The notes below the pieces were generated by a model. That model did not search any database. It saw nothing but the letters and a program-made list of their open reading frames with translations, and was not told the DNA's origin. Shown in pieces: positions 3,075 to 35,383 of a DNA stretch of 37,346 nucleotides. The position numbers were made by a program, and so were the translations under genes. Position 1 is the first letter of the stretch. Every line of letters begins with the position of its first letter. The DNA is from an uncultured Candidatus Saccharibacteria bacterium (lineage in GTDB: Bacteria; Patescibacteriota; UBA1384; JAMDBS01; CAZXAY01), in NCBI GenBank assembly GCA_964638435.1, contig CAZXAY010000004.1:1-37346 (forward strand). The letters run 5' to 3'.

Positions 3075-3353
3075 TTAGGACTTACGCGTTTCAGCGTTGT
3101 CATCCTGAACAACAGTGAAGGATCTCGATGAGATTCTTCGGGATGAACCCTCTCTTCGAGTCTGAGCGACGAGATCGCCAGACCTCAGAGTCGATGACAG
3201 AATGACATCAAACGCGTAAGTCTTACTATTATTAAACTCTCCCTTGGTCACTAAACGTTCTTCCATCTCTGGAAATAAAACTTTCCGATTATATTTAATC
3301 AACATTTCCAACGTAAGTGGTTTATCAAGTTGTATTTTTTTATTACTAGACAT
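3075..3353 (-). CDS. small ORF whose 3' half is read-through into repeat element E1 (probably disrupted)
   Basis: The N-terminal roughly 44 aa (MSSNKKIQLDKPLTLEMLIKYNRKVLFPEMEERLVTKGEFNNSK) look genuine. The rest translates the palindromic element. A further fragment, LNRIEKLEDKVINRLDMILKNIRTLHEE, follows in another frame downstream of the element. Confidence 0.3.
   Translation of the reverse strand: MSSNKKIQLDKPLTLEMLIKYNRKVLFPEMEERLVTKGEFNNSKTYAFDVILSSTLRSGDLVAQTRREGSSRRISSRSFTVVQDDNAETRKS
3078..3222. repeat. nested-hairpin repeat element E1 (MITE/REP-like)
   Basis: The terminal inverted repeats are GGACTTACGCGTT and AACGCGTAAGTC. The inner arms are GTCATCCTGAA and CAGAATGAC. Its reverse complement shares long blocks with 11312-11428. 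Confidence 0.8.
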
Positions 3354-6056: not shown

Positions 6057-6096
6057 CTTATATATTTTTCAAATATAATGCTATCTTTTTATGTTA

Positions 6097-6125
6097 TGTG
6101 TTACATGCTACATGATACATGTTTC
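6097..6125. repeat. GTTACATGCTACATG word repeat (copy 1)
   Basis: The sequence TGTGTTACATGCTACATGATACATG shares the 14-mer TGTTACATGCTACA with 7014, 7074 and 25130. Confidence 0.8.
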
Positions 6126-6981: not shown

Positions 6982-7011
6982 TTAGAACCCAATATAGTAA
7001 ATATACTTGAA

Positions 7012-7040
7012 TTTGTTACATGCTACAAGTTACACTTTTC
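7012..7040. repeat. GTTACATGCTACA word repeat (copy 2)
   Basis: The sequence is TTTGTTACATGCTACAAGTTACAC. Confidence 0.8.
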
Positions 7041-7071
7041 AGGCTTAGCAAATATTGTTGTTTTTATTCCC

Positions 7072-7108
7072 CTTGTTACATGCTACATGTTATATGTTAC
7101 ATGATTTC
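7072..7108. repeat. GTTACATGCTACATGTTATATG word repeat (copy 3)
   Basis: The 22-mer GTTACATGCTACATGTTATATG is identical to the one at 25131-25152. Confidence 0.85.
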
Positions 7109-9659: not shown

Positions 9660-9849
9660 CCCAGTATATCAACTTTCAGTTAAATTTTTATTAATGTTTT
9701 ATATCTACCAAGTCACCATCATTTATTAAACCTCGTTACATAATTGAACTTCTCAAAAAATTTAATAAGTTTTGAAACATTTTGAAAGTTGTATTACTGG
9801 GTCATATATTACACTTTAAACATACATCTAAAACTACACGTAATCAATA

Positions 9850-11289
9850 TTATCTTTCAAAATCAGTTGCTGCAGAAGTAAAATTCCATGGACCGCTACC
9901 ACAAGAATCTGCTTGTTTTTCGATTTTAAGTGTTACGGAGTTAGTAAGTTGCATAATTATTTTGCCTGACAAATAATTCGGCTCAAAGCAATAAGCATTA
10001 CCGTCAGATGTAATGTCATCAAAATCTCTATTTACTAATCCCGATGATTGTGGACTAAATTGATAGGTTCCGCTAGATAATCCACTAGCACTCATAGAAG
10101 TACCTACAGAAAATACCGCCTGCGCTGGGTCAATATTATCATGTACTAAGGCTAAATGCGGATCTTCGCTGGAAAATGTGGTGGTTCCTGCTACAAACCA
10201 ATTCCCTTGAGTAGTCCCTGCCACATCCTGCTCTATAGTACCACAAATTGGGTCAACTGTTCTTTTAGGATTGCCATCATAATCACCAAAACGATTCGTT
10301 AAAGTAGTCTTTAGATCACTAGAATAATAGTTTATCGGACAAACTGTATGAGTAGTATCACTTCTCTGACTCCACCGAGACAAATTAGCAAAATTTAGTG
10401 TAATTCGACTATCATAAGCATTCATATCCAATGCCATTTGTCCAGCGTTACCTCCAACTGTACCTATTTGCTCGCCAGCAGTAATAGTCAAACTAACATT
10501 TTTGCCGTAATTACGATAAGTTTTTCCTCCAGTCGAATAAGTGCTATCCCATTGATAAGGAGCGCTAAGCGCTTGGCTCAATTTATCTGCAAGCGCAGAA
10601 ACATGACCAAATTGTGCCTTAAATTCATTACATGGTTGAAAGGTAAAGGTATAATCAGTAAATCCATCTGTCACATGCTCACTAGCTGATATCTGGATCA
10701 CCGTTGCATCACCAGGAGAATAAAGATTATAACTTGATAAATAATTTGTTAAATAAAAATATATATGATCAGTAGGGAAAACGTGACCTGATGGGTTAAG
10801 ATTACCCAAAGGAGTAATGCTAGTATAGTCAGATTCATTAAGTGGTGAAGTAGTAAAAAACGAGTAATTTGACTCGCATGATGGTAAGCTGGATGAACTC
10901 CCATTATCAACCCCAGAACTACCAGAACTTGATCCACTAGATGAGCTCGAGCTACCAGAACCATTACTTGAGCTTCTTGATGATGTATTTGATGTTTTAT
11001 TGCTAGTTCCAGGAGTTTGTTGATTATTTGTTGTGTCAGTAGCGATATCACTACTTATTGCTGGCAACGAGTTTTCCGTTTGCTCAATTGCTTTTTCATT
11101 AACTAGTACTGCATTCTTTTTATTAATACCTGTATAAATTTTATTAACAACTTCTTTGGCCGCAATATAAGTAATTGGTGACAATATTAAACCACTAGTA
11201 ATTATCAAAATTAAATTCCGCTGGGGGTTCAACCAGATAAGATTTTTAAATATTCTAAATTGGTTAACTACTTGCGTCCAAATTAACAA
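9850..11289 (-). CDS. membrane-anchored/secreted protein with a Ser/Gly-rich linker, unknown
   Basis: It has a TTG start and an N-terminal TM segment. The linker is SSRSSSNGSGSSSSSSGSSSGSSG. The C-terminal region is beta-rich. Confidence 0.6.
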   Translation of the reverse strand: MLIWTQVVNQFRIFKNLIWLNPQRNLILIITSGLILSPITYIAAKEVVNKIYTGINKKNAVLVNEKAIEQTENSLPAISSDIATDTTNNQQTPGTSNKTSNTSSRSSSNGSGSSSSSSGSSSGSSGVDNGSSSSLPSCESNYSFFTTSPLNESDYTSITPLGNLNPSGHVFPTDHIYFYLTNYLSSYNLYSPGDATVIQISASEHVTDGFTDYTFTFQPCNEFKAQFGHVSALADKLSQALSAPYQWDSTYSTGGKTYRNYGKNVSLTITAGEQIGTVGGNAGQMALDMNAYDSRITLNFANLSRWSQRSDTTHTVCPINYYSSDLKTTLTNRFGDYDGNPKRTVDPICGTIEQDVAGTTQGNWFVAGTTTFSSEDPHLALVHDNIDPAQAVFSVGTSMSASGLSSGTYQFSPQSSGLVNRDFDDITSDGNAYCFEPNYLSGKIIMQLTNSVTLKIEKQADSCGSGPWNFTSAATDFER

Positions 11290-11311
11290 ATGCCCCCTAT
11301 AATAATTGTAC

Positions 11312-11428
11312 GACTTACGCGTTTGATGTCATTCTGACCCGCCCTCAGGGCGAGGGAAAAATCTCATCGAGATCCTTCATCCGTCGGCTGGCGGATTCAG
11401 GATGACAACACTGAAGCCACGTAAGTCC
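11312..11428. repeat. nested-hairpin repeat element E2 (inverted relative to E1)
   Basis: GACTTACGCGTTTGATGTCATTCTG, TCTCATCGAGATCCTTCA and TTCAGGATGACAAC..CGTAAGTCC match the reverse complement of 3078-3222. Confidence 0.85.
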
Positions 11429-11439
11429 TAAACTGAAAA

Positions 11440-13485: not shown

Positions 13486-13712
13486 ACCAAATCAGATTTT
13501 ATTAAATTACTTTCAGTTATCAATTTTTCTTTTTCTCTCCTTTTTAGTGATTTGATAACAAATTCTTCTCTTCTGGCCTCACTTTGCGAATATCCTTCGG
13601 CATTATAACATAATTTTACTGGCAATCTTCCCGATGTATATTTTGCACCTTTTTTATTATTATGTGCTTTTATCCTTTTTTCTAGATTAGTCGTAATCCC
13701 AGTATAATACAT
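13476..13712 (-). CDS. GIY-YIG nuclease minigene, N-terminally eroded
   Basis: YYTGITTNLEKRIKAHNNKKGAKYTSGRLPVKL is present. The expected MNKKWYV.. N-terminus lies just upstream in another frame (ATGAATAAAAAATGGTATGTA), and the GIY strand is missing. Confidence 0.6.
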   Translation of the reverse strand: MYYTGITTNLEKRIKAHNNKKGAKYTSGRLPVKLCYNAEGYSQSEARREEFVIKSLKRREKEKLITESNLIKSDLVCV

Positions 13713-13743
13713 ACCATTTTTTATTCATGATAATTTATTTGGA

Positions 13744-23056: not shown

Positions 23057-23311
23057 TTATTTAATATTATCAAATAATTTTTTAATAAATTTTCTACCCG
23101 CGTGTGATTTTAAATACTTTTCTCTTTTGCATGCTTGTTGCTTATTGTCAAATGTTTCAGTATAAAATAATTCCCACGGTTTAAATTGGCTAGTATATTT
23201 ATTCGAGCCAGAATTATGTTCCTTTAGTCTTTTCTGAACATCTAATGTATAGCCAACATATGTCTTGGACATCACCTTACTTTTTAAAATATAAATATGA
23301 TAATTGATCAT
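23057..23311 (-). CDS. GIY-YIG nuclease minigene (84 aa), copy 1
   Basis: The protein is MINYHIYILKSKVMSKTYVGYTLDVQKRLKEHNSGSNKYTSQFKPWELFY...KREKYLKS. The start was set at the internal ATG, because the longer ORF reads through the leader and the tRNA fragment. Confidence 0.8.
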   Translation of the reverse strand: MINYHIYILKSKVMSKTYVGYTLDVQKRLKEHNSGSNKYTSQFKPWELFYTETFDNKQQACKREKYLKSHAGRKFIKKLFDNIK

Positions 23312-23399: not shown

Positions 23400-23654
23400 T
23401 TATTTAATATTATCAAATAATTTTTTAATAAATTTTCTACCCGCGTGTGATTTTAAATACTTTTCTCTTTTGCATGCTTGTTGCTTATTGTCAAATGTTT
23501 CAGTATAAAATAATTCCCACGGTTTAAATTGGCTAGTATATTTATTCGAGCCAGAATTATGTTCCTTTAGTCTTTTCTGAACATCTAATGTATAGCCAAC
23601 ATATGTCTTGGACATCACCTTACTTTTTAAAATATAAATATGATAATTGATCAT
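23400..23654 (-). CDS. GIY-YIG nuclease minigene (84 aa), copy 2 (identical)
   Basis: It is offset from copy 1 by exactly 343 nt. Confidence 0.8.
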   Translation of the reverse strand: MINYHIYILKSKVMSKTYVGYTLDVQKRLKEHNSGSNKYTSQFKPWELFYTETFDNKQQACKREKYLKSHAGRKFIKKLFDNIK

Positions 23655-25092: not shown

Positions 25093-25121
25093 ATATTTCC
25101 TTGTTTTATGCCACATATCAA

Positions 25122-25155
25122 ATGTTATATGTTACATGCTACATGTTATATGATA
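25122..25155. repeat. GTTACATGCTACATGTTATATG word repeat (copy 4) between the permease stop and the ATPase start
   Basis: The sequence is ATGTTATATGTTACATGCTACATGTTATATGATA. Confidence 0.85.
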
Positions 25156-27038: not shown

Positions 27039-28181
27039 TTAGCGAAACGTTGCGGGCGTGGCCTCCCCAATAATATCCATCACCATCAAGTCAAGTGCCA
27101 ATTTTGGTTCGATTTGACCTGTTTTCATTTTTACATCATAATCCAAAAGGGTTTTGTAAATTTCTTTAAGCCTCTCCATTGTATAATTTTTCGCCTGCCC
27201 CATCGTCTTTTCTGCTACAAAAGGATGGAGACCACTTTGTTTTAAAATTTCAGTTTTAAGATTTAAATTGTAGCTTTTAGCTTTTAGTTTTTCGCTTTTA
27301 GTTTTTTCATCAAGCAAATCTTTTATAATTAAAAGATTGCGAAACTGGTACACTACCATTGTATGAATATAAAGCTCGTTCATACCACTATCCAAAAGCT
27401 TATGTAATTCGCTCTGAGCACGTTTTATATTCTTTGCGCCTATTGCATCAATTAAGTCAAAAACATTAGCTGTAACGCGCGCTCTAACTAATAATTCTAC
27501 ATCCTTACTTTTTATCGTGTCATCCCGAACTTGCCTGTCTCGAGTATCCTCGAGAGAATTCGGGATCTCACTTGATTCTGAAATAAATTCAGAATGACAA
27601 TAAGTAGTAAGTTTGCGAATTTCATTCGATAACCGCCATAAATCATTCCCAACATATTCAATTAATTTATCAACTGCCATATTATCGATCAAACCACCGA
27701 GCAACTCAACCTCACCCATAATCCATTTTTTAAGTTCATATGGTTCAAGTAATTTAAATTCTTGTGACTGAGGCTTGCCCTCCGAAGCTTTTTTATCATC
27801 CGTAGCTTTAGCGTAGGATGAAGCGGAGGATGGGGGTTTATTTAATTTTTTAAATAATGCAGTTCTTCTATCAACCTTTTCTGATTCATAAATAACTAAA
27901 ACCGTAGTTTCGGGAATCTTAGGTAAAAACTCAATAAACTGCTCCTGTAACTTTTTTTTGCCATCACTTAATAGATTTTTTATTATAACTAACCTGGTTT
28001 TAGCCAAAAAAGGCATAGCAAGTACCATCCGCGTTATCTGCGTATAATCTAATTCCTTATCCGCACAATCCGCGACTGAAAGATTTGTATCTCCCAAACT
28101 TGCATCAATAAACCTAGCCTTAATTTGCGCTAGTTTTTGATGCGACCTATATGTATCCTCTCCAAAAAGAAACAATATCAT
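27039..28181 (-). CDS. holA: DNA polymerase III delta subunit, carrying in-frame palindromic insertions
   Basis: The N-terminus ILFLFGEDTYRSHQ fits holA, as does the overall layout (..NDLWRLSNEIRKL.., ..VFDLIDAI..). It has 380 aa, against about 330 typical (from memory). Confidence 0.75.
   Translation of the reverse strand: MILFLFGEDTYRSHQKLAQIKARFIDASLGDTNLSVADCADKELDYTQITRMVLAMPFLAKTRLVIIKNLLSDGKKKLQEQFIEFLPKIPETTVLVIYESEKVDRRTALFKKLNKPPSSASSYAKATDDKKASEGKPQSQEFKLLEPYELKKWIMGEVELLGGLIDNMAVDKLIEYVGNDLWRLSNEIRKLTTYCHSEFISESSEIPNSLEDTRDRQVRDDTIKSKDVELLVRARVTANVFDLIDAIGAKNIKRAQSELHKLLDSGMNELYIHTMVVYQFRNLLIIKDLLDEKTKSEKLKAKSYNLNLKTEILKQSGLHPFVAEKTMGQAKNYTMERLKEIYKTLLDYDVKMKTGQIEPKLALDLMVMDIIGEATPATFR
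27519..27598. repeat. short member (E3) of the nested-hairpin element family, inside holA
   Basis: GTCATCCCGAAC...TGTCTCGAG-tatc-CTCGAGAGA...TTCGGGAT...ATTCTGAA-ataaa-TTCAGAATGAC. The termini match the inner termini of E1 (GTCATCCTGAAC and CAGAATGACA). Confidence 0.7.
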
Positions 28182-35193: not shown

Positions 35194-35383
35194 ATAGTTA
35201 TGCTCAGTAATACAACTTTCAGAATGTTTTAAAGATTTATTAAATTTTTGAAAAGACTTATCGATATTATCTGGGTTTATAATATGGTGATAGCTAGGAA
35301 GATATTAAACATTAATAAAAATTTAACTGGAAGGTTGACCCCGTATAGCTACTACGTGATTATACGGGGTGAATATACTGAGT

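Follow-up and report, generated by a model that had tools for sequence, protein, structure and literature searches.

The closest described relatives of the repeats analyzed here are the CGTC-tagged REPs, a class that includes dRS3 of Neisseria and RPE-4 and RPE-6 of Rickettsia (Di Nocera, De Gregorio & Rocco 2013, PMC3733652). A second related system comprises the NTS hairpins of Neisseria and the GIY-YIG nuclease Ssn (Chenal et al. 2025, PMC11893778). Binding and cleavage of NTS by Ssn require single-stranded DNA, and SsnA does not bind RNA; NTS tolerates both loss and extension of its loop, and NTS-ssn-NTS units are laid out like an insertion sequence (PMC11893778). In Neisseria, the Ssn/NTS system modulates natural transformation (PMC11893778). 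In the third system, REPINs/RAYT, the unit that replicates consists of two short palindromes in inverted orientation (Bertels & Rainey 2011, PMC3116915).

The window, i.e., the whole 37,346-nt stretch of Candidatus Saccharibacteria DNA that was analyzed, contains two related elements, E1 and E2, and a shorter one, E3 (Table 1). Judged by its tag and the AT start of its stem, the core shared by E1 and E2 is a member of the CGTC/TGTC-tagged REP class, to which the Ssn-recognized dRS3/NTS hairpins of Neisseria belong, and is not a new RNA. We consider it probable that E1 and E2 are non-coding, non-autonomous selfish DNA elements, which work at the DNA level and carry an Ssn-hairpin-pair core within TA-flanked ends.

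The first-pass annotation had described E1 and E2 as members of a nested-hairpin repeat family sharing three blocks, all of which were found. E2 positions 1-25 are the reverse complement of E1 3222-3198 (25/25), positions 49-68 correspond to E1 3135-3116 (20/20) and positions 85-104 to E1 3109-3090 (19/20). The family is genuine and structured, with conserved blocks, self-complementary variable parts and copies throughout the genome. As ssDNA, E2 folds at -27.3 kcal/mol (z = -4.6), E1 at -33.5 kcal/mol (z = -4.9) and E3 at -18.9 kcal/mol (z = -5.5), and for each element 0 of 200 shuffles folded equally well. The pairings proposed between the blocks, GTCATTCTGA with TCAGGATGAC and GAAGAATCTC with GAGATCCTTC, each contain one non-Watson-Crick position (T.G and A.C, respectively). 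Covariation supports two local hairpins over these block-to-block pairings, GTCAT-N-CTG...AAG-N'-ATC, in which N and N' are always complementary. E3 does retain the inner ends, as had been noted; it is a two-hairpin dimer that lacks outer ends and is read in frame as part of holA. The suggested label of a structured MITE was close to the mark. The core fits a known family, the CGTC/TGTC-tagged REPs (dRS3/NTS/SRM), which has a protein partner, although this partner, Ssn, is known as a nuclease and not as a transposase. The match to a known REP super-family argues against novelty and not against the structured-MITE reading.

Table 1. Parts of E2, E1 and E3 and a mini-hairpin near ftsH, with their positions in the window.
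Feature	Position	Strand	Basis or remark
E2 left flank: TA and one variable base	11309..11311	+	TA at -3/-2 in 14/18 family ends
E2 left terminal inverted repeat GACTTACGCGTTTGAT	11312..11327	+	Direct reading
E2 left hairpin, TGTC tag, E-type; upper stem CCCGCCC/GGGCGAGGG	11328..11363	+	Direct reading and 24 E-type copies
E2 inter-hairpin spacer TCATCGA, 7 nt	11364..11370	+	Direct reading
E2 right hairpin, inverted; module M2, a 16-nt palindrome (TCCGTCGGCTGGCGGA), as upper stem/loop	11371..11406	-	E-type comparison
E2 right terminal inverted repeat region, 3' end ...CGTAAGTCC	11407..11428	+	TA next at 11429-11430
E1 left terminal inverted repeat	3207..3222	-	TA at 3224-3225
E1 left E-type hairpin with 46-nt plug-in M3 (~3152-3197); upper stem GGG/CCC	3132..3206	-	
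E1 right E-type hairpin GTCATCCTGA-ACAACAGT-GAAGGATC	3099..3124	+	
E1 right terminal inverted repeat region	3078..3098	-	Flanking TA is 3076-3077
E3 first hairpin GTCATCCCGAA...TTCGGGATC; module M5 (TCTCGAGTATCCTCGAGAG, 27538-27556) in the loop	27519..27567	+	
E3 second hairpin GTCATTCTGAATTTATTTCAGAATC, inverted	27574..27598	-	
Weak CTCGAG-loop-CTCGAG mini-hairpin just 5' of the ftsH start codon	895..912	+	-6.6 kcal/mol, z = -2.4

Two facing (T/C)GTCAT-palindrome-ATC hairpins make up the core. A (C/T)GTC tag, a palindrome starting with AT and a C directly after it are present in each half of E1, E2 and E3. The genome contains 63 GTCAT-palindrome-C hairpins versus 2-9 in ten Markov-1 simulated genomes, and the pairs among them include 15 tags-outside dimers, 3 tandem arrangements and no tags-inside dimer; in cross-phylum loci, 19 dimers had the tags outside versus 4 with the tags inside. 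The stem of the E-type variant is built of 5 bp, a tandem G.A/A.G and a further 2-7 variable bp, its arms are separated by inserts of 2 nt to ~57 nt, and its tail is mostly TC, TG or TT. The claim that structure is kept while sequence changes was borne out, since N and N' are paired in all 24 E-type copies of the genome (T-A in 12, C-G in 10, A-T in 1, G.T in 1, unpaired in 0), and the upper stem is complementary in 21 of them, with at least eight different sequences. Across 120 contigs from many phyla, N/N' formed a Watson-Crick pair in 169 of 171 cases, and 130 of the 171 copies had T before GTCAT, while 26 had C. The left hairpin of E2 is slightly decayed, as AAG has become AAA, producing a C.A mismatch; its loop has relatives at C73:1232 and C67:1816. 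The 7-nt spacer between the hairpins is also present in the E1, C1a and C62 dimers; the left hairpin of E2 scored below the dimer filter, and the E2 spacer was therefore taken from direct reading.

Two kinds of variable insert are present: upper stems that covary, and mini-palindromes of independent origin lodged in the hairpins. The earlier idea of replaced sequence holds for the covarying upper stems. Another part of the variation is not compensatory change and is made of the modules M2, M3 and M5, which also occur at unrelated places. M2 was found at no fewer than eight unrelated loci. M3 is solitary at C10, C24 and C25, with a looser relative at C20:20475, and the C62 copy without M3 forms a filled/empty pair with E1. 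One contig in run X1 skips E1 3152-3197 (46 nt) and probably comes from the C62 paralogue. The cyanobacterial SDR described by Elhai and colleagues in 2008 are reportedly also tiny palindromic modules, nested in each other and in other repeats and tolerated in frame. Their sequences and host phylum differ from those of E1/E2, and we know of no described link between SDR and GIY-YIG hairpins.

Like the CGTC REPs, the hairpins of this genome are tagged with (C/T)GTC on one side, have a stem starting with AT, form mostly HH dimers, often of unlike partners, and occur in several phyla, with in-frame copies in replication/repair genes. The bias toward tags-outside ('HH') dimers was likewise reported for CGTC REPs (PMC3733652). 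The differences concern the stem (8-9 continuous bp in CGTC REPs versus 5 bp, a tandem G.A/A.G and 2-7 variable bp here), the loop (4-5 nt versus no fixed size, with room for whole extra palindromes) and the tail (CCA versus mostly T-rich). Furthermore, the host is a CPR bacterium, a group absent from the hosts in PMC3733652, and an additional inverted repeat with TA flanks encloses the dimer. With NTS and the Ssn-related motifs (PMC11893778), the hairpins share the tag, the AT-start palindrome, the 3' C and the dispensable loop, and some CPR copies are exactly equal to the NTS core; as in the NTS/SsnA system, hairpins flank ~95-aa single-domain GIY-YIG genes, direct upstream and inverted downstream. 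Unlike NTS, the pairs described here are gene-less and dispersed. In addition, the E-type and most other hairpins of the genome fall outside the published degenerate SRM sequence, HGTCWYN(0-2)YYVSBRHN(0-5)WNVSBRGN(0-2)RNCYNB. It gave 3 matches in the genome versus 0-2 in simulated genomes and none in E1, E2 or E3. The hairpins flanking the Ssn-like gene of contig C59 also failed it when compared by hand, and 0 of the 3 genome matches lay on C59. Thus, the published search sequence is too narrow as a detector for this phylum and misses almost all of its hairpins.

The outer layer of E1 and E2 is a 15-16-nt inverted end, N-GACTTACGCGTTTG..., flanked by TA. The genome-wide frequency of TA is 9.5%, versus 14/18 at positions -3/-2 of the family ends. 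A third full copy of the family was located at C1:23594-23747, C62:4815-4893 and C11:1-55 are copies cut at contig ends, and the genome holds many partial relatives. The left end of E2 recurs in E1, C1:23594, C62:4815 and the elements of types B and C. Since GTCAT lies 14, 17, 21 or 30 nt from the outer end, cleavage at a constant distance from the hairpin cannot define the outer ends. The boundaries of the copies are sharp: C5:4160-4280 and C21:2481-2601, both of type C, do not differ at all from one TA to the other and have unrelated flanks, and the alignment of type A copies is confined to the stretch between the TAs. The TA beside E1 at 3076-3077 contributes to the TAA that terminates ORF 3075-3353, the last 48 of whose 92 codons come from E1. 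Correia/Neisseria mosaic elements resemble E1/E2 in size (~100-160 nt), inverted ends, TA flanks and intergenic position; as here, their ends can make outward promoter-like sites, and they have mosaic, recombining interiors with dRS3-type hairpins as bounds. Their end sequence is unrelated, and in E1/E2 the hairpins lie inside the inverted ends instead of bounding the element. To our knowledge, a partner transposase is known for neither the Correia/mosaic elements nor the E1/E2 type.

Elements with such outer ends were detected in 4 of 162 genomes of the class, while a control pattern gave zero matches; besides the genome studied (G000), these represent three other genera (G003, G511 and G532), and there, too, the cargo is a hairpin pair. 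E2 DNA had no match in 40 relatives or in plasmid and phage collections. Based on these searches, the whole element is apparently lineage-restricted, and the hairpin core is not. The pattern of ends plus GTCAT matched two sites in viral contigs, both in one and the same coding sequence and without hairpins, which were treated as chance. An empty site, i.e., a form without E1 or E2, was not found in the contigs of three groundwater runs; one metagenomic orthologue of the neighboring gene (67% identity) has a type B element in the corresponding position, with no synteny beyond the gene and no empty site.

These ends raise the question of whether E1 and E2 are ordinary MITEs of a TA-duplicating DDE transposon of the IS630/Tc1-mariner type, in which only the 15-16-nt ends would matter and the nuclease hairpins would be passengers inserted in the central loop. 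We regard this as unlikely. The terminal inverted repeats, the small size, the several copies with boundaries sharp at TA, and the C-TA that follows 9 of 10 right-hand ends in the three other genera all agree with it, as do the three unrelated kinds of cargo (types A, B and C) between the same ends and the fact that mini-palindromes do plug into other hairpins. However, no DDE_3 transposase is encoded in any of the four element-bearing genomes; in our genome, OrfB_IS605 is absent and the sole rve match is below the family cut-off. No pair of ends more than ~165 nt apart was found, so there is no candidate autonomous copy whose ends could enclose a gene, and no cargo-free version of the ends was found. 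Moreover, the cargo in all four genera is always a kind of hairpin that flanks GIY-YIG genes, which is unexpected for random passengers.

Two Ssn-like candidates were found in the genome, C59:3728-4012 (95 aa) and C18:73-363 (97 aa), with GIY-YIG as the only Pfam match; the best PDB match was weak (1zg2, E = 0.08). Both genes are flanked by (C/T)GTC hairpins of non-E-type variants, on the same strand upstream and inverted downstream, and their proteins share 45-54% identity with homologues from other phyla whose genes have flanking hairpins. Of 401 Patescibacteria genomes, 190 encode a homologue of the C59 protein, and a hairpin of this class lies within 250 nt of 30 out of 32 gene matches in 30 fetched Patescibacteria loci; some of these hairpins equal the Neisseria NTS core letter for letter. 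In G381, a 410-nt hairpin-ssn-hairpin unit occurs twice with 99.8% identity and unrelated flanks, the identity extending from 5 nt before the left GTCAT to 1 nt past the right ATGAC; this one duplicated unit constitutes the evidence for mobility of such units. In our genome, E-type hairpins flanked a GIY-YIG gene at 0 of 12 loci of a 75-contig assembly in which several contigs end in repeats. Among 120 E-type loci, all three GIY-YIG genes found were flanked on both sides and lay 72-119 nt from an E-type hairpin. These genes (loci L025, L038 and L058) belong to contigs of Saccharibacteria, Cyclobacteriaceae (L038) and Gracilibacteria; the two intact ones encode 90-109 aa, and the Cyclobacteriaceae frame runs stop to stop with an unclear start. 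They are candidate enzyme/site pairs of a new specificity in a protein family proposed as ssDNA tools. The GIY-YIG gene at C8:28481, adjoined by a CTGAGC...CGAAG hairpin, was considered as the cognate nuclease of the E-type and dropped at 37-42% identity to the E-type-flanked nucleases.

Like a REPIN, E1/E2 would be a non-autonomous unit that depends in trans on one single-copy gene, itself bordered by the same palindromes. Unlike in REPINs, the tag is (T/C)GTC and not GTAG, and the candidate partner is a GIY-YIG nuclease, whereas RAYT is a Y1 HUH transposase. Different hairpins, of the AACC...GGTT type, flank the eight RAYT-like genes of the genome, and one IS200-like gene likewise has other hairpins; these Y1 transposase-like genes were rejected as partners, their own flanking hairpins being unrelated to the E-type.

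For E1 and E2 as probable selfish elements, we propose the following scheme. The TA-flanked 15-16-nt terminal inverted repeats would bound the copied unit, and the core is a tags-outside pair of (T/C)GTC-tagged palindromes (GTCAT, an AT-start stem and a C), of the class that Ssn nucleases bind and cut in ssDNA. The upper stem and loop are probably not read by the protein, which would permit compensatory drift and the uptake of the mini-palindromes M2, M3 and M5. The hairpin pair may represent the gene-less counterpart of hairpin-ssn-hairpin, served in trans by Ssn-type nucleases such as the two candidates on C59 and C18. The TA-flanked ends would add a second, cut-and-paste-like mobilization. 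The anatomy, covariation, gene association, in-frame insertion and sharp copy boundaries were observed here, hairpin cleavage by Ssn is published work, and movement of E1/E2-type elements by Ssn is our inference. It should be noted that inverted hairpins offer one cleavable site per strand only, which counts against excision and re-insertion by the nuclease alone.

A more general proposal can be put forward only tentatively, as an unlikely one: Ssn-type GIY-YIG nucleases may be the missing mobilizers of CGTC/TGTC-tagged REPs. The hairpin-ssn-hairpin units would then be autonomous via ssDNA hairpins, the E3 pairs and the wrapped E1/E2 would be non-autonomous derivatives, and new insertions would favor other hairpins, at their loop or upper stem, giving the nests observed. 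If true, it would mean a new transposition chemistry, with a ~95-aa nuclease acting on hairpins. The gene-less pairs, the TA-bounded identical copies and the duplicated hairpin-ssn-hairpin unit provide a concrete model of spread, a question that was left unanswered in 2013 (PMC3733652) and 2025 (PMC11893778). Independently of this proposal, the analysis ties the very widespread tiny GC-rich hairpin repeats of ultra-small (CPR) bacteria, where Ssn-type hairpins are often translated inside essential genes, to a named system, the hairpins of the Ssn ssDNA nuclease.

The hairpins could instead serve the host as sites that mark DNA for the resident Ssn, modulating ssDNA uptake or recombination, and be kept by usefulness and not by movement; to us, this seems quite improbable. 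The role of Ssn/NTS in Neisseria transformation is in its favor, together with the wide distribution of hairpins and Ssn-like genes in Patescibacteria and the conservation of the hairpin core across phyla. On the other hand, a copy interrupts an essential gene in frame: the holA alignment shows ~22-26 extra residues (HSEFISESSEIPNSLEDTRDRQVRDD) at E3, missing in 10 relatives, and by this comparison E3 is an in-frame insertion in holA. Copies also decay, e.g., through the mismatch in the left hairpin of E2, and identical copies are present at unrelated sites. In-frame interruption, decay and identical copies at unrelated sites together indicate selfish-spread behavior.

The functional RNA entertained in the first-pass annotation, whether a small RNA or a cis-acting hairpin of a polycistronic mRNA that stabilizes or processes it or regulates neighbors, is very improbable, given that no Rfam family was matched by three element loci even at E = 1 (only 4 tRNAs in the window reached the gathering score), that copies lie in frame within coding sequence, E1 and E3 being translated, and that SsnA is devoid of RNA binding (PMC11893778). 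Several features had spoken for such an RNA: the fold is strong on both strands, 12 of 13 outer-end elements lie between co-directional genes, several of them 12-25 nt before a start codon, and members of a type share one orientation with respect to their neighboring genes (5/5 in type C, 3/3 in type B and 4/5 in type A). However, E1 and E2 are opposed relative to transcription on the same replichore. The left end of E2 contains an outward promoter-like site (ATGACA-16 nt-TACAAT) facing the gene at 9850-11289, but the region shows no enrichment of such sites (48 versus 39.8 expected). A role as an intrinsic terminator was rejected, as no T-run follows E1 or E2.

Two mini-hairpins had been proposed as detached modules of the family. 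The segment 963-980 is not a hairpin (-1.1 kcal/mol), while the one before ftsH is a weak hairpin and possibly a relative of module M5.

The host genome, recovered from groundwater, has a size of 1.10 Mb, 33.5% G+C and 75 contigs and is rated 100% complete; its relatives comprise many families with genomes of 0.5-1.1 Mb, which places it in Patescibacteria/CPR. The three blocks that the first-pass annotation had recognized in both E2 and the reverse complement of E1 were confirmed (identity 25/25, 20/20 and 19/20), as was the self-folding of E1, E2 and E3. As single-stranded DNA, all three elements were far more stable than shuffled sequences (z-scores -4.6, -4.9 and -5.5; none of 200 shuffles equalled any of them). 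The proposed genome-wide family was recovered by a search with a profile made from full copies of the element, which found a third complete copy, two copies truncated by contig ends and a further tail of partial relatives. Of the two mini-hairpins suggested near 895 and 963, the first (895-912) is a hairpin, but a weak one, while 963-980 does not form one.

The middle and inner blocks proved to be halves of two hairpins in a face-to-face arrangement, with the form GTCAT-N-CTG-A-(upper stem)-loop-(upper stem)-G-AAG-N'-ATC (E-type hairpin). Among the 24 E-type copies of the genome, N/N' was T-A in 12, C-G in 10, A-T in one and G.T in one, and was never unpaired; the upper stem was complementary in 21 copies and had at least eight different sequences. 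Long-range stems pairing the shared blocks had been assumed earlier. In the E-type dimers listed for this genome, one half carries T/A and the other C/G, so that the long-range stems bear T.G and A.C, whereas the local hairpins are perfect; therefore, covariation favours the local hairpins. In total, 63 hairpins consisting of GTCAT, a palindrome starting with AT and a following C were found, compared with 2-9 per genome in ten simulations. They formed 15 inverted pairs with the tags outermost, none with the tags inside and three tandem pairs. The CGTC-tagged REP super-family (Di Nocera et al. 2013) takes in Neisseria dRS3 and Rickettsia RPE-4/RPE-6; copies were reported to lie in frame within genes for replication and repair, and "no dedicated transposase" was noted (PMC3733652). 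The elements studied here share with it the (T/C)GTC tag, the stem starting with AT and the mostly tags-outside dimers of unlike partners, and belong to this super-family.

SsnA is a 94-aa single-domain GIY-YIG nuclease (Chenal et al. 2025), which binds and cuts NTS (CGTCATTCCCGCGMAVGCGGGAATCYRG), a longer form of dRS3, solely as single-stranded DNA (PMC11893778). The positions of most weight in NTS are the three bases preceding the palindrome and the C following it, the loop is dispensable and extendable, and hairpins of this kind typically flank ssn genes (PMC11893778). The genome under study contains 12 GIY-YIG matches. Two of these genes, on C59 and C18, encode proteins of 95 and 97 aa with the GIY-YIG domain only and have GTCAT hairpins on both sides, the upstream hairpin on the same strand and the downstream one inverted; a single compensatory pair separates the C59 hairpin from the NTS core. 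Homologues of the C59 protein were found in 190 of 401 Patescibacteria genomes. In 30 fetched Patescibacteria loci, hairpins of the GTCAT kind lay within 250 nt of 30 of the 32 gene matches; in several cases the hairpin equals the NTS core, and in several the loop is enlarged.

When the E-type hairpin was searched for as an exact pattern, at least 120 contigs from many phyla were found, where by our own estimate chance could produce of the order of a hundred single hits across the scanned collection. Among the matches listed, 37 loci had two or more hits, tags-outside pairs outnumbered tags-inside pairs (19 versus 4), and N/N' was Watson-Crick in 169 of 171 pairs. A GIY-YIG gene was present in 3 of the 120 E-type loci listed, 72-119 nt from the hairpin in each case, on contigs of Saccharibacteria, Cyclobacteriaceae and Gracilibacteria. 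Judging by gene context, we assign the E-type hairpin as a putative Ssn-associated motif, because all three of these genes are Ssn-like (45-54% identical to C59) and have E-type hairpins on both sides. The published degenerate search sequence matched neither the E-type hairpin nor almost any hairpin of the genome. It should be noted that the twelve GIY-YIG matches include at least three sequence types, several beside tRNA genes.

Repeat elements and associated features (bare coordinates refer to the window, which is one entire contig, C4)
Feature	Position	Remark
E1 (type A)	3078-3222 (-)	
E2 (type A)	11312-11428 (+)	
E3	27519-27598	
Other type A	C1:23594-23747	complete
Other type A	C62:4815-4893; C11:1-55	truncated by contig ends
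Type B		interior arms match (18/18) hairpin arms flanking GIY-YIG gene C19:6366-6584
Type C, five copies	including C5:4160-4280 and C21:2481-2601	interior is a different hairpin pair
Promoter-like site, type A left end	11305-11332 (-); 3202-3229 (+)	
M2	at least 8 loci	TCCGCCAGCTGGCGGA
M3	E1 left hairpin; solo on C10, C24, C25	46-nt unit; solo units closely related; looser relative on C20
M5	at least 16 loci, including E3 loop	TCCCGAGTATTTTCGAGGG
GIY-YIG matches	23093-23302; 23436-23645; 13533-13724; 319-468	not Ssn-like (motif REKYLKS or other); stop codon in 319-468
GIY-YIG matches, other contigs	C8, C10, C16, C19, C53	
Y1_Tnp matches	C14:2531-2788; C5:5330-5566; C15:18572-18823; C23:1686-1925; C10:5253-5531; C20:8801-9133; C29:12107-12436; C12:7246-7497; C61:2820-3185	two stops in C12 match
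AT-rich inverted repeats	9673-9799; 35205-35333	60 and 51 nt, 82% identical
Heptamer arrays	6086-6123; 7001-7098; 25103-25154; C18:470-600	TTACATG/TTATATG-like
holA second insertion	about 27774-27833	PSSASSYAKATDDKKASEGK; residues about 117-136

A functional RNA had also been considered, and nothing matched any Rfam family. E3, a hairpin pair that lacks the outer ends, lengthens the holA product in frame by about 22-26 residues, between its two Pfam domains, and is absent from ten relatives. E1 encodes the final 48 codons of a 92-codon ORF, the TAA stop of which includes the flanking TA, and E1 and E2 have opposite orientations within one replichore. We conclude that the elements are inserted and act at the DNA level. 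A second insertion in holA, specific to this genome and lacking in most relatives, probably represents a further repeat module that is translated.

The outer block consists of a terminal inverted repeat, N-GACTTACGCGTTTG. Eighteen ends of this kind occur in the genome, 14 of them with a TA located two bases beyond the repeat (background 9.5%). These ends bound three kinds of interior (types A, B and C). The copied unit is bounded by TA, since the two located type C copies are identical from TA to TA between unrelated flanks and the type A copies can be aligned only between the TAs. Of 162 genomes of the class, four contained the pattern of ends plus 85-115 nt, and the control gave no hits. At least five complete elements, as well as several single ends, occur in the three other genera, with flanks TAG-GACTTACG...GTAAGTC-CTA; most of the ends lie directly beside GTCAT hairpins belonging to other variants, and one end in G511 has a type-B-like cargo instead. 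An orthologue of gene 9850-11289 from a metagenome (67% aa identity) is accompanied by a type B element in the position of E2, and synteny ends at this gene.

Orientation relative to flanking co-directional genes was uniform by type (C 5/5, B 3/3, A 4/5), which could reflect replication-strand bias or a transcription effect. The type A left end forms an outward promoter-like site, where the hairpin tag supplies the -35 box ATGACA and, after 16 nt, a -10 box (TACAAT or TACTAT) starts at the flanking TA. The E2 site points toward gene 9850-11289, from which it is separated by 22 nt; overall, there was no enrichment of promoter-like sites.

The E1/E2 core repeats the arrangement of hairpins around ssn genes (tags outward), with the gene absent. 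In another genome (G381), contig C21 carries two copies of a 410-nt unit in which a 95-aa Ssn-like gene lies between a hairpin and an inverted hairpin (L205:1478-1887 and L205:5857-6266; 99.8% identity, unrelated flanks). The identity extends from 5 nt before the left GTCAT to 1 nt after the right ATGAC, and the left boundary adjoins the position corresponding to the SsnA cut in NTS. On sequence grounds, the unit appears to be autonomous and to have been copied recently. We suggest that hairpin-ssn-hairpin units may be mobile, the duplicated unit being one case, and that gene-less pairs such as E3 would be non-autonomous derivatives, with Ssn-type nucleases acting on them in trans. Portions unread by the nuclease would then drift and take up plug-ins. 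The distance from the outer end to GTCAT is variable (14-30 nt), and thus a fixed-offset Ssn cut cannot define the outer ends; no matching transposase was found in the four host genomes, nor any empty site. The main rival explanation is an ordinary TA-duplicating MITE, the central loop of which gathered nuclease hairpins; however, all cargoes observed are hairpins of a kind found flanking GIY-YIG genes.

As for the inserts, previously described as unrelated but self-complementary, some are the covarying upper stem (CCCGCCC/GGGCGAGGG in E2, with relatives on C73 and C67), but others are independent mini-palindromes occurring elsewhere. The C62 copy is E1 minus M3, and the four type A copies between them represent each possible combination of M3 and M2 (present or absent), which implies recurrent insertion or recombination among copies. 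In G511, M3-like units lie within hairpin loops and M2 within a type-B-like element. A filled/empty pair was seen for type B: C32:198 reads GGTAATC-CGA-GAACTAC, and C7:26709, C3:40283 and C54 carry a 25-nt CTCGAG-type insert.

The hairpin class, the dimers, the in-frame insertions and the protein partner are all already published. In the literature searched, we found no account of E-type hairpins with their tandem G.A and free upper stem, of how abundant this system is in CPR bacteria, of TA-flanked inverted repeats that enclose gene-less hairpin pairs, or of the nesting.

The nine Y1_Tnp matches are one IS200-like gene (142 aa) and eight ORFs of 190-236 aa resembling REP-associated tyrosine transposases. 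All eight have a hairpin of their own on both sides (AACC...GGTT types or GGGGACGGTTCTCTTTTAACCTGA), which bears no relation to the GTCAT hairpins. The AT-rich inverted repeat is a repeat family of its own, with many length-variable joints in public contigs at 9679-9783 and a related stretch in a metagenomic relative (L185:110-280). The heptamer arrays also adjoin the C18 Ssn-like gene and some M5 modules.
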